64,000 nt of DNA from Octopus vulgaris (Eukaryota): contig OX597843.1 of the NCBI GenBank assembly GCA_951406725.2, forward strand, positions 6,014,001 through 6,078,000. The letters run 5' to 3'. The notes below the pieces were generated by a model that was given only the letters and a program-made list of their open reading frames with translations, made no database searches and was not told where the DNA came from. This document shows positions 280 through 35,691 of this stretch, piece after piece. Position 1 is the stretch's first letter, and each line of letters opens with the position of its first letter. The translations under genes were made by a program, and so were the position numbers.

Positions 280-527
280 TTGCAGCGTGTAAGGTGTTTA
301 TAAGCCATTTACGAAACAAAATCCGTTAGATTCACTTCAACATTTAAATTTAATTTGTCAAAATATTTTCGTCGCTTTGAGACCGCGACCTGATCACTGA
401 CAAAGCTTCGTGCTTCAAAACTTTGTGTGTTTCTTGAATGGCTTATAAACACCTTCCACGCTGCAATTGCTTTCGTTCCAGCACACGATCTTAGATCAAG
501 TCACTCGCTATGCAAGTACATCTCCGT
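280..527. mobile_element. Penelope-like / retrozyme-like short element with ~40 bp inverted arms, inserted in TA/TG microsatellite
   Basis: 280-320 (TTGCAGCGTGTAAGGTGTTTATAAGCCATT..) is the near reverse complement of 425-466 and encloses a hammerhead-like motif. Family assignment is inference. Confidence 0.55.
354..404 (-). ncRNA. Minimal type-I hammerhead ribozyme-like motif, G3:C8 core variant
   Basis: Minus strand: TTTGTCA-GTGATCA-G-GTCGC ggtctcaaa GCGAC-GAAA-ATAT-TT-TGACAAA. 7 bp stem I, 5 bp stem II, palindromic stem III. Confidence 0.7.
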
Positions 528-643
528 GTATATACATATATATATGTGTGTGTGTGTGTTTGTGCCTGTGTGTGTGTGTGTGCGCGTGTGTGTGTGTATG
601 TATGTGTATATATATATATATATATATATATGCATATATATAT

Positions 644-1051
644 ACTCTTTTACTTGTTTCACTCATTTGACTGTGGCCATGCTGGAGCATCTCATTTCGT
701 CGTGCAAATCGACCCCAGGAATTATTCTTTGTAAGCCTAGTACGTATTCTATCTATCTCTTTTGCCGAACCTCTAAAGTTACGGGGACGTAAACATACCA
801 CCATCGGTTGTCATGTTGGGGGTACAAACACTGACATACAAACATATACACACACATACATACACACACACACATATATATATATATACATATATACGAC
901 GGGCTTCTTTCAGTTTCCGTCTACCAAATCCACTCCCAAGGCTTTGGTCGGCCCGAGGCTATAGTAAAAGACACTTGCCATAGCTGCCACGCAGTAGGAC
1001 TGAACCCGAAGCCATGTGGTTGGGAAGCAAGTTACTTACCACACACAGCCA
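644..1051 (-). mobile_element. SINE family A (tRNA head, CORE-like ACCTTGGGCAAGT, internal TA/TG microsatellite, CR1-type tail)
   Basis: Matches about 20 other copies in the window; ends in (AAAAGAGT)n-like tail. Confidence 0.9.
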
Positions 1052-1188
1052 TTTACATATATTTATCTACACATGCTGACATATATACATGCATACGCAC
1101 ACACGTATATAAAACATGATATATACATACTTACATAGACGTACACACATACACACACAATCATACATACACGCTCTCACACATGGTG

Positions 1189-1760
1189 CATGTGTGTGTC
1201 TATGTGAGCGTGTGTATGAGTGTGTGTGTATGCAAAAACGTGTGTGTGCGTCTATGTGAGCGTGTGTATGAGTGTGTGTGTGTATGCAAAAACGTGTGTG
1301 TGTGTGTCTATGTGAGCGTGTGTATGAGTGTGTGTGTATGCAAAAACGTGTGTGTGTGTGTCTATGTGAGCGTGTGTATGAGTGTGTGTGTGTATGCAAA
1401 AACGTGTGTGTGTGTCTATGTGAGCGTGTGTATGTGTATGCAAAAACGTGTGTGTGTGTCTATGTGAGCGTGTGTATGTGTATGCAAAAACGTGTGTGTG
1501 TGTCTATGTGAGCGTGTGTATGTGTATGCAAAACGTGTGTGTGTGTGTCTATGTGAGCGTGTGTATGAGTGTGTGTGTATGCAAAAACTTGTGTGTGTGT
1601 GTCTATGTGAGCGTGTGTATGAGTGTGTGTGTATGCAAAAACGTGTGTGTGTGTGTCTGTGTCTGCAAAAAACGTGTGTGTGTGTCTATGTGAGCGTGTG
1701 TATGCAAAAACGTGTGTGTGTGTGTCTATGTGAGCGTGTGTATGAGTGTGTGTGTGTCTA
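1189..1760. repeat. Compound minisatellite, ~45-55 bp unit (GT)nCTATGTGAGCGTGTGTATGAGT(GT)nATGCAAAAAC, about 11 copies
   Basis: Recurrent anchors CTATGTGAGCG and TGCAAAAAC separated by variable GT runs. Confidence 0.9.
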
Positions 1761-2524
1761 TGTGTATGTGCGTGTGAGTTTATGTGTGTCATTGTGTTTG
1801 TCTGTGGCTGTGTATTTGTGTGTGTACGTGTCCGTGTGTGAGTCTGTTGGTGTGTGGGTGTGTGTGTGGTGTGACTGTGTGTGTATATCTTTGTGCCTCT
1901 GTGTGTGTGTGTGTCTGAGTGTGTGTGTGTGTGCCTGTGTGTGTGTGTGTGTGTGTCTGTTTGTGTGTAGGTCGTGAATCGTTTGTTTAAGAAAAGGTAT
2001 GGGACAGGTGCTGGCGGTATTTGGAATGAAGGCGGTGGAGAAGCTTCTAGTGATGGTGGTGGTGGTGGTGGTGGTGGTAGCCGCGGCGGTCATTGTAATG
2101 GCGGCGTAGGCGGCAGCGGAAGTAAAGATTGTGGAAATAACAAGTAGAGGGGGAAAAGCCGTCGAAGATCAGCTGACGGAAGTGTGAAATTTTTCTGAGA
2201 AAACCTGGGTGAGATTTTGTGCCAGTGTGTGTGTGAATGTTTTATTAAACCAGCTACGTTGGCGGCCATTTTGCTGCTTGTTTTGCAAGCAGCAGGTGAC
2301 CCTAGGTAATTCTCACGCACACACCATATTCTCACCGACCATCCCGTCATTCATTAGAGTTGTAAGGCCGTGTTCATTCATAAATAAATAGGTGTGAGTG
2401 TGTGTGTGTATATATATGTATGTGTGTGTGTGAATATATATATATGACTGTGTGTGTGTATATGTGCGTATATATATATGAGTGTGTGTGTATTTATATA
2501 TGTGTGTATATATACATATATATT

Positions 2525-32470: not shown

Positions 32471-32860
32471 ATATAAATATGTATGTATATATATGTATAT
32501 ATATATATCTATATGTATATATGTATATATATATATATATATATATATATATATATGTATGCATGTATGTATGTATGTAAGTATGTCTGTGTGTGTATGT
32601 ATGTATATATATGTATGTATGTATATGTATGAATGTATATATATGTATGTATATATCTATATGTATGTATATATGTGTGTGCATATGTATATATATATTT
32701 ATATATATACATATATATATATATATATATATATATATATATATATATATATATATACATATATATACACACATATGTATGTGTGTGTGCATGTGTATAT
32801 ATATATATTCGTTCTTCACACGTTTATTACTTTTCTTATTCTGACTCATGTCCATTGTCC

Positions 32861-32899
32861 GGAAATCTTTCGTCGCACATCTGTGACCTCCTCGGTGCC
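32861..32899 (-). ncRNA. Degenerate minimal hammerhead-like motif (CCGAGGA core)
   Basis: Minus: GGCA-CCGAGGA-G-GTCAC agatgt GCGAC-GAAA-GATTTCC; stem I imperfect. Confidence 0.4.
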
Positions 32900-35118
32900 A
32901 CTTTCCGTCGCATTCACGATTGCCTGATCGCGGGTTCGATTCCCAGACCGGGCGCTGCGTTGTGTTCTTGAGCAAGCCACTTCACTTCACGTTGCTCTGC
33001 GTTCAAAATCGTCCTCGGCGGAGTTTGAACTCAGAACGTGAAGACCGACGAAATGCCGCTATTCATTTTGCCAGGCGTGCTAACGATACTGCCAGTTTGC
33101 TACTTCACACACACACACACACACACACACGCATGCACACACACGCGCGCGCGCACGCATGCATGCACACACACGAGCGCACATATTGGTGTGTGTGTAT
33201 GCATGCGTGTGTGTATGTGCGTATGTATATATACATGTATGTATATATGTATATATATATATAGACAGAGAAAGAGGGATAGAGAGAGGGAGGGAGATGG
33301 AGAGAGAGAAGGAGAGAGATAGAGAAGGTGAGAGAGAAATCGAGAGAGAGAAGGGGGGAGAGGGAAAGAGAGAAGGAGAGAGAGAGTGAAGGAGAGATTG
33401 AGTGAAGGAGAGAGAGAGAGAGAAGGTGAGAGAGAAATAGAGAGAGAGAGAAGGGGGAGAGGGAAAGAGAGAAGGAGAGAGTGAAGGAGAGAAAAAGAGT
33501 AAAGGAGAGGGAGAGAGTGATTAAAGGAGAGAGAGAGAGAGATCCGTGTATGATAACAACGATAACAACAACAATGACAAAAAAAACAACAACAACAATA
33601 GCCGTTACTTGGTGTACGGAAGTAGACGGATGTAGAACTCAAGCTGTGATATCGACTGTAGGAACAACACCAAAAACAAAAAAAAAATCAACCCACCATC
33701 GCCACCTCGCCATGACCATCACCACTGGCCACCCACGTACGACCTCATTGTTGGTGTAAAACACAACAAGATCTGGCGATCAGAGTACAAGTGTGTAGAA
33801 CGAAATGGTATTTCCGCTCTTGGAAGCCGCTCATTCTTTTGAAACCGCAAAAGAAATACATATCTACAAACATACATACATACATATACATACATATATA
33901 CATACATACATACATACATACATACATACATACATACATACATACATACATATATATATATACATACATATATGGATATAGGTTATATGTACCTACCCGG
34001 GTGCTTGTACACAATAGGAAGACAAGGGCATCCCGTGTGTGTGTGGTGTGAGAGAGAGAGAGAGAAAGAGAGAGTGAGTGTGTGTGTGTGCGTGTGTTTC
34101 CCAACCACATAATTCTGGGTTCAGTCCCACTGCGTGGCACCTTGGGTGAGTGACTTCTACGATAGCCCCGGGCCAATGAATGCCATTATCTATCTATCTA
34201 TCTATCTATCTATCTATCTATCTATCTATCTATCTATCTATCTATCTATCTATCTACCTGTCTATCTATCTATCTATCTATCTATCTATCTATCTACCTA
34301 TATATATATATATATATATATATATATATATATATATATATATATATATATATATATATATATATATATATATATATATATATATATATATATATATATA
34401 TATATATATATATATATATATATATTAAATTAGAGATAAAACCACTATTAGGCAAATCATACAATGAAAAACTTAAGCCAGTACATAAGATTAATTAATT
34501 TATATTATTTTAAATATATATCAAAATTATTAAAAAAAGATAATACATACAATACATACATACATACATACATACATACATACATACATATACAAACACA
34601 TATACATATACATATCAGTAAAGTCATGGAGTGAATAATCAGAAAGAAGCTGATGTTCCTAGAAGAAAATTACCTACCGAACATATATACATATAGATAA
34701 ATATACATATATATATACATATACATCTATCTATCTATACATCGACCGCGTAAAGGGGGTCTAGACGGAATTTGAACACGCAGTGTAAAGATTCGGAAGG
34801 AAAAGGAATTCACGAGACTCTCTAATCACTGCGATCGTTTCAGCGACTCATTGTGCATCTGTACCTCGCAGGTGGGATGCTTTTGATAAAACCTACTAGA
34901 GGGCATGTGAATAACATCTGGTAGCCGAATAATGTGAACGGGCTTTAAAGGTCATATTACAAGGTGTCTCTCCGAATATGAAAAGTATAAATTATACATA
35001 CACACACACACACACACACACATATATATATATATATATATATATATATATATATATATATATATATATATATATATATATATATATATATATATATATA
35101 TATATATATATATATTGT

Positions 35119-35402
35119 GGAGGCGCAATGGCCCAGTGGTTAGGGCTGCGGACTCGCGGTCGGAGGAGCGCGGTTTCGATTCCCAGACCGGGCTTTGTAT
35201 GTTTATTGATAAAAAAAACACCTAAAGCTCCACGAGGCTCCGGCAGGGGGTGGTGGCGACCCCTGTTGTACTCTTTCGCCACAACTTTCTCTCACTCTTT
35301 CTTCTGTTGGCCTGCTCGCTTCGCCAGCGGGGTGGCGTCATTTGAAGGCTAAAACAATGCGAAGCACATTGTAACCATCTGATAGCCTGGTCGATCACGT
35401 GA
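35119..35402 (+). mobile_element. SINE C variant with tail type 3, in (TA)n
   Basis: Shared head and body to CACAACTTTCTCTCACTCTT, then an unrelated tail ending GGTCGATCACGTGA. Confidence 0.85.
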
Positions 35403-35587
35403 TATATATATATATATATATATATATAAATTAGAAAAAAAACACCTTTTGTCAATTAAAAATTAAAAATTAAATTACACCATCTAGAAAATTACATACA
35501 ATAGAAATATTAAATATAAGATTAAAAAATATAACAATGATTAAGTAATGCGCAAAATAATAAATAAAACGTATATATTTGGTAGAA

Positions 35588-35691
35588 TAACGACACGTGT
35601 TTCGTGGCTATATTTAAGATATGATTATAGTAAAGATATTAGTAGTAGTAGTAAAATCACTTTAATATAAATATAGCCACTCATAAGGTTA
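35588..35691 (-). ncRNA. Hammerhead-like motif with 13 bp stem II, ~50 nt loop, GUC site, G5U core mutation
   Basis: Minus: TAAC-CTTATGA-GTGGCTATATTTA...TAAATATAGCCAC-GAAAC-ACGT-GTC-GTTA, within an AT-rich element at ~35428-36890. Confidence 0.65.

Follow-up and report, generated by a model that had tools for sequence, protein, structure and literature searches.

Minimal hammerhead ribozyme folds in abundant repeat families of Octopus vulgaris, most of them ends of Penelope-like elements

A stretch of 64,000 nucleotides of the Octopus vulgaris genome (positions 6014001-6078000 of contig OX597843.1; the assembly comprises 2.8 Gb in 227 contigs), referred to here as the window, carries six motifs that resemble the hammerhead ribozyme. 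A first-pass annotation, made from the sequence alone, had drawn attention to them, and all six cores were found at the positions and on the strands it gave; the one-base purine insertion it described in five of the six, and the four stem III palindromes it named, were likewise as described. We designate the sites F1 (354), F2 (19424), F3 (20968), F4 (24029), F5 (32861) and F6 (35588). The ribozymes and the elements that contain them, several of which are pseudo-long terminal repeats (pLTRs) of Penelope-like elements (PLEs), are as follows.

281..415, minus strand: F1 solo pLTR, starting just upstream of the ribozyme and ending within the first codons of the PLE open reading frame (ORF), beside (TA)n.
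354..404, minus strand: F1 minimal type I hammerhead with a G3:C8 core, 7-bp stem I, 5-bp stem II, palindromic stem III and U17.
416..527, plus strand: F1 3' end as an inverted partial copy, a head-to-head PLE insertion signature, carrying ORF-start codons.
19268..19525, plus strand: F2 truncated pLTR with (AAT)n/(GAT)n linker, body and tail; this copy lacks the tRNA-like start that others have.
19424..19469, plus strand: F2 minimal hammerhead with a canonical core; the stem III palindrome is lost in this copy.
20863..21063, minus strand: F3 element of ~200 nt, between (CA)n and (TA)n.
20968..21002, minus strand: F3 minimal hammerhead with a U4C core, which is the family majority.
23977..24074, minus strand: F4 short pLTR fragment of a GIY-YIG PLE.
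24029..24065, minus strand: F4 minimal hammerhead with a U3:A8 core.
32804..32909, minus strand: F5 short pLTR fragment of a GIY-YIG PLE.
32856..32900, minus strand: F5 hammerhead, decayed: this copy has changes in stem I, at U4 and in one stem II pair, all of them intact in the family majority.
35427..36710, minus strand: F6 element with a fixed 3' end at (TA)n and a long AT-rich 5' part; another repeat apparently interrupts it near 36180-36560.
35588..35691, minus strand: F6 hammerhead with a 77-nt AT-rich stem II and an 8-nt palindromic stem III; G5U is peculiar to the window copy.

Could motifs this small be chance matches, produced by a loose descriptor in a repetitive genome? A minimal type I hammerhead descriptor that made the 3:8 pair obligatory and tolerated at most one core mismatch returned seven matches in the window, namely F1, F2, F3, F4, F6 and two weak ones at 13107 and 45131. 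The latter lie in other dispersed repeats (window 13081-13200 and 45101-45220) whose copies do not keep the fold, and were discarded. F5 fails the descriptor, with stem I and one stem II pair broken in the window copy; these pairs are restored in the family majority, making the window copy a decayed member of an intact family. Within positions 1-47000, five matches scored 8 or higher, against a mean of 0.27 and a maximum of 2 in 100 local dinucleotide-block shuffles. Counted at any score, the seven matches compare with a mean of 2.75 and a maximum of 9 in the shuffles and are not significant on their own. For a sample of the genome we took 40 evenly spaced 10-kb stretches (400 kb) and left positions 3 and 8 free in the descriptors. 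The strict version gave 12 matches, all of them paired at 3:8 and 11 with a self-complementary stem III, against a single match in eight shuffles; with the relaxed version, 3:8 was paired in 18 of 22 matches, as opposed to 2 of 16 in three shuffles. Thus, although shuffled sequence does yield weak matches, the strong ones lie far above it, features outside the descriptor recur, and the family majorities are nearer to the consensus ribozyme than the window copies are. On the strength of both sets of shuffles we rejected chance as the explanation and regard it as extremely improbable. Among the 150 of 320 Rfam matches listed for the window, no hammerhead family appeared and almost all were microsatellite-driven microRNA matches; a partial tRNA match at window 9754-9808 (minus strand, 31.3 bits) is probably the head of a short interspersed nuclear element (SINE).

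Every site proved to be one copy of a dispersed octopus repeat family. First-look candidate counts, which are lower bounds, came to at least 753 for F1, 2381 for F2, 705 for F4, 1970 for F5 and 1591 for F6; for F3, a pattern search with a 24-nt core word gave 11,278 exact matches in the genome and none for the reversed control. The copies compared for F1, F2, F4, F5 and F6 were picked mostly by likeness to the window copy, whereas for F3 we took the 25 matches met first on a single contig, in a search whose pattern set G8. The majority cores are GUGAACA in F1 (35/39 copies), CUGAUGA in F2 (33/41), CCGACGA in F3 (18/25), UUGAAAA in F4 (25/28), CUGA(A/G)GA in F5 (19/26) and CUGAUGA in F6 (23/26). 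The catalytic core N3-U4-G5-A6-N7-N8-A9...G12-A13-A14 with its 3:8 pair is thus present in the majorities of F1, F2, F4, F5 and F6, and F3 keeps the pair but has C4 in 18 of 25 copies.

Position by position, the 3:8 pair is G:C in 37 of 39 F1 copies, C:G in 40 of 41 F2 copies, U:A in 26 of 28 F4 copies, C:G in 23 of 26 F5 copies and C:G in all 26 F6 copies; C3 occurs in 24 of the 25 F3 copies, where G8 was set by the search. All six family majorities are therefore Watson-Crick at 3:8 (four C:G, one G:C, one U:A), in agreement with the complementarity that the first-pass annotation had read from single copies. Since the majorities retain the pair, covariation holds between families, and some of the odd cores quoted from the window reflect decay of one copy: CCGACGA is indeed what most F3 copies carry, but CUUAUGA of F6 and U7 in GUGAUCA of F1 are seldom or never shared by other copies, and in F5 the core CCGAGGA belongs to a minority. 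An unpaired base lies between positions 9 and 10.1 in five of the families, F6 being the exception, and the closing pair G10.1:C11.1 occurs in all six. Stem III is an exact palindrome in the majorities of F1, F2, F3, F4 and F6 and is self-complementary in F5 only with G-U pairs.

The 400-kb sample contained 26 copies of the six families and 20 of ten other hammerhead families (nine of ten queried were matched), 46 in all. This density of about one hammerhead-like motif per 9 kb bears out the high frequency claimed earlier (roughly one per 6 kb) and extrapolates to ~3e5 motifs per genome, decayed copies and inverted pairs included; strict intact matches would number ~8e4. Loci L305, L155 and L316, together with random stretches, revealed an abundant F3-like family with the core CUGUUGA (A6U; 8 matches in 400 kb), and L223, L244, L249, L261, L225 and L164 represent further F6-like hammerhead families with a long AT-rich stem II and a stem III of 6-9 nt.

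What kind of element carries these ribozymes? The repeat copies end at a fixed point on the 3' side and are shorter or ragged on the 5' side. Long copies show the order ORF, 3' untranslated region (UTR), hammerhead, fixed end, usually at microsatellites and often accompanied by an inverted partial copy (12/29 for F1, 13/24 for F4, 4/24 for F5). For F5, remnants of a GIY-YIG ORF adjoin the element at 4 of 25 loci, and the hammerhead lies downstream in sense at 9 of 30 ORF-anchored loci, one of which is the query's own. For F4, 12 of 30 loci anchored on the UTR have an ORF upstream and a hammerhead downstream in sense; a single duplicated segment accounts for four of these. For F1, an upstream word led to remnants of an ORF for reverse transcriptase (RT) and GIY-YIG at 2 of 30 loci, L311 and L293, one in sense and one inverted. 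The PLE ORFs that lie close to F5 locus L096 and to F3 locus L154 come from different families, and we excluded them as links; within the window, the PLE queries used detected no ORF remnants. The three families share a 3' region whose translation corresponds to the first ~30 codons of the PLE ORF, the fixed end lying ~30 codons into the ORF start. As this shared region encodes the first ~30 residues, the three families are related to one another, and each ends at a pLTR-ORF junction. They form one clade, so the earlier description of six unrelated elements is not supported, nor are all the flanks unrelated or non-coding.

An intact sister element at locus L322 displays the whole arrangement: an inverted truncated copy, a 5' pLTR with hammerhead, a 1310-amino-acid (aa) open frame, a 3' pLTR with hammerhead, and a (TA)n end. 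Its frame shows, as visible motifs, RT, a C-x4-C-x2-C linker and a GIY-YIG-type end, and its N-terminus is close to the translated 3' ends of F4 and F5 and more distant from that of F1. The ORFs tied to F4 and F5 have the same linker, which is truncated in the F1 remnant. The hammerhead of the L322-type family carries A9C in 11 of 15 copies. Near-identical PLE open frames of 1234-1310 aa, with a long Asn-rich stretch and no Pfam match, lie at L322:2785-6714, L323 and L324. A separate, Neptune-like family with 781-aa open frames also has a U3:A8 hammerhead, which at many loci follows its ORF, so that U3:A8 occurs in two distinct groups. At one of its loci (L325:2244-5506) a 333-aa upstream frame overlaps the 781-aa RT/GIY-YIG frame and the U3:A8 hammerhead follows ~880 nt downstream; here Pfam reports GIY-YIG over the cut-off and RVT_1 below it. 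Two hallmarks of endonuclease-positive (EN+) PLEs are accordingly represented. A single ORF with RT and C-terminal GIY-YIG was seen in L325 (Pfam), in L322 (motifs, BLASTP, relatives) and in remnants at L330 and L347, and tandem pLTRs with an inverted 5'-truncated copy were seen in L322 and among the inverted partners. One PLE ORF of this genome is 98% identical to a protein labelled Octopus vulgaris.

F2 differs in its build. Many copies start with a 76-nt head containing words that by eye resemble A and B boxes, followed by (AAT)n and then the ribozyme body. The body follows within 450 nt in 22 of 30 head matches, and 12 of the 30 start in the first 3 nt of the head, which may resemble tRNA-Ile. 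Is F2, and perhaps F3 with it, an independent SINE-like family that has its own promoter and borrows PLE enzymes? The coupling of head and body and the precise starts favour this, as does a protein search with the F2 tail frame, in which none of 150 matches lay in an open frame longer than 242 aa. Against it, neither ARAGORN (9 loci) nor Rfam (15 loci at the gathering score, one head by E-value) called the head a tRNA, and the unit directly follows a Poseidon-type RT/GIY-YIG ORF remnant at 2 of 54 F2 loci. The order at L347:1-480 is ORF stop, short spacer, tRNA-like head, (AAT)n and body; at L330 the body comes directly after the ORF. This ORF has no Cys linker, as in Penelope and Poseidon, and inverted partial copies accompany F2 at 13 of 24 loci. 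Because the unit is contiguous with a Poseidon-type ORF at both loci, we assign it to that element as its pLTR and consider an independent SINE-like origin unlikely. Solo F2 pLTRs may still re-amplify alone, which is compatible with the pLTR assignment, and some unclassified SINE families of a 2026 O. vulgaris repeat annotation (PMC13282606) may be solo pLTRs.

We consider it highly probable, then, that the six motifs are minimal type I hammerhead folds in abundant dispersed families, that F1, F2, F4 and F5 are pLTRs of RT/GIY-YIG PLEs, and that F3 and F6 are likely pLTRs as well. The ribozyme form and (TA)n ends of F3 and F6 fit such an origin; the 5' end of F3 is nearly fixed, at a microsatellite, and F6 has more than 1.4 kb of AT-rich upstream sequence with an internal duplication. 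Several observations weigh against this assignment. All of 39 F3 and 21 F6 copies lacked a sense ORF upstream, out to 1.6 kb and with flanks that were mostly 1.5 kb or shorter, and inverted partners are few (1/25 for F3, 2/24 for F6); the F6 upstream sequence matched no PLE protein and its longest ORF did not exceed 91 aa. The 1310-aa ORF of L322 was assigned to no family by Pfam, and its identity rests on a BLASTP match (E 2e-10) to a Pfam-recognised RT/GIY-YIG ORF, on its motifs and on the annotations of its relatives. The ORF links of F1 and of F2 consist of two loci each. The Penelope origin proposed in the first-pass annotation is supported for the four families tied to ORFs. Its further view that the elements are non-autonomous is right in so far as the copies are short, but those of F1, F2, F4 and F5 are solo pLTRs or 5'-truncated ends of families that have ORFs.

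How do these elements compare with known systems? Minimal hammerheads of the same architecture have been described in the pLTRs of metazoan PLEs, as many heterogeneous families per genome, in solo and inverted copies and including U3:A8 (PMC4209133). The octopus motifs share with them the type I topology, the short stem I, the unpaired base between 9 and 10.1, G10.1:C11.1, the palindromic 15.2-16.2, U3:A8, and the occurrence of many families per genome, mostly solo or as inverted pairs. Unlike those described in that study, the octopus ones also comprise a G3:C8 family, a majority-U4C family and a family with a 77-nt stem II. The extrapolated octopus total of ~1e5 motifs or more compares with 2,000-9,000 per genome there, under counting rules that differ. 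U3:A8 has been reported as natural, and U4C as lowering activity in vitro while being tolerated by a viroid (PMC3088659). Like the EN+ PLEs Neptune and Nematis (PMC8557442), with which we compared it by features, the octopus F1/F4/F5 clade has a C-terminal GIY-YIG, a Cys-rich linker between RT and endonuclease, inverted 5'-truncated copies and microsatellite targets; the same source calls the role of PLE hammerheads unclear. As to the suggestion that the elements might be undescribed in this lineage, the architecture is published for metazoan PLEs, and our literature search, which covered neither supplements nor one key study of small PLE hammerhead variants, found no octopus description of such elements and no natural G3:C8 family. 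The 2026 annotation lists Penelope-like elements, and its main text does not mention ribozymes (PMC13282606).

Poseidon_Ac of Anolis offers a view of the mechanism (PMC11167929). There, reverse transcription starts 111-118 nt into the ORF on AT-rich DNA that is cut, ribozyme mutants insert normally in vitro, cleavage needs protein, the double change C3G/G8C partly rescues cleavage, and no RNA-seq ends were reported at the cut site. As in Poseidon_Ac, the octopus pLTRs overlap the ORF start, the insertions end in the first ORF codons and the targets are AT-rich. Whereas the Poseidon_Ac ORF starts inside stem II, the ATG of F1, F4 and F5 follows the predicted cut by some tens of bases; the tRNA-like head of F2 is a further difference. 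The G3:C8 pair engineered in Poseidon_Ac (PMC11167929) is natural in octopus F1.

Does copying proceed from cut or from uncut RNA? We tallied 5' ends for 60 copies in loci that had not been fetched for their own family, the six window sites being part of the searched set. Five begin within 15 nt of the predicted cut site and 55 upstream of it, with BLAST ends imprecise by a few bases, so that the template was mostly uncut RNA. Copies keep an uncut ribozyme, and U4C or A9C is found in subfamilies that have amplified, so copying probably does not depend on cleavage, to judge from sequence. By analogy with the anole PLE, the element's enzyme would nick AT-rich DNA and prime reverse transcription inside the pLTR-ORF junction of uncut RNA. 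A start at the 5' junction, with synthesis continuing to where the transcript begins, shortly before the ribozyme, would leave solo pLTRs of 100-300 nt, such as F1, F4 and F5 in the window; a start at the 3' pLTR would leave longer 5'-truncated copies. The palindromic stem III may let two copies fold as a dimer with weak cleavage, probably with the help of protein; dimer cleavage by this route is a published proposal (PMC4209133; reviewed in PMC6765202). The 3:8 swaps would be compensatory, having become fixed in lineages in which selection acted on the fold. The preservation of 3:8 pairing across families is a further point against this picture, since it speaks for a role of the fold, and perhaps of catalysis, at some stage.

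The same tally bears on whether these are retrozymes, that is, non-autonomous short RNAs cut from tandem transcripts by hammerheads, circularised and copied in trans by a PLE enzyme. Non-LTR retrozymes are likewise short and abundant, carry a type I hammerhead and coexist with PLEs, which have been proposed as their partners (PMC7229834). The head of F2, reminiscent of RNA polymerase III promoters, the nearly fixed 5' end of F3 and its missing ORF link would also suit them. Yet 5' ends are not concentrated at the cut site, and four families are contiguous with their own ORFs. Retrozymes proper are moreover described as canonical hammerheads in tandem arrays of 170-400 nt without an ORF of their own (PMC7229834); the octopus hammerheads are minimal and their copies dispersed, often head-to-head, with no long tandem arrays. 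We therefore find a retrozyme origin very unlikely and do not retain the earlier label 'retrozyme-like'.

The window is otherwise rich in microsatellites, with ~21 kb of long simple arrays beyond 39.5 kb. These include a 4.2-kb (ATT)n array at window 39543-43710 and a 16.5-kb (ATC/ACC) array at 46968-63439 that has a 33-nt period and no G on the plus strand. Short tandem arrays with units of 92-246 nt lie at window 3569-4055, 5565-6286, 7008-7467, 13761-14215 and 14683-15038.

With the architecture already known for metazoan PLEs, the core observation is unsurprising to a specialist. What stands out is how abundant the motifs are, that a G3:C8 family occurs naturally, and that successful families carry altered cores. 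The octopus is of value as a resource: its 2.8-Gb genome holds one motif per ~9 kb, a single clade shows three states of the 3:8 pair, families with changed cores have spread, and there are intact elements, nearly identical to one another, suited to assay. One clade swaps 3:8 among C:G, U:A and a natural G:C, and amplified families have fixed U4C or A9C. Might the hammerhead serve here as a folded, dimer-forming landmark for the retroelement protein or promoter and not as a cutter? We put this forward tentatively, as an unlikely reading. If it were true, the hundred thousand or so dated copies in the octopus genome would amount to a natural mutational scan able to settle the role of the PLE hammerhead.

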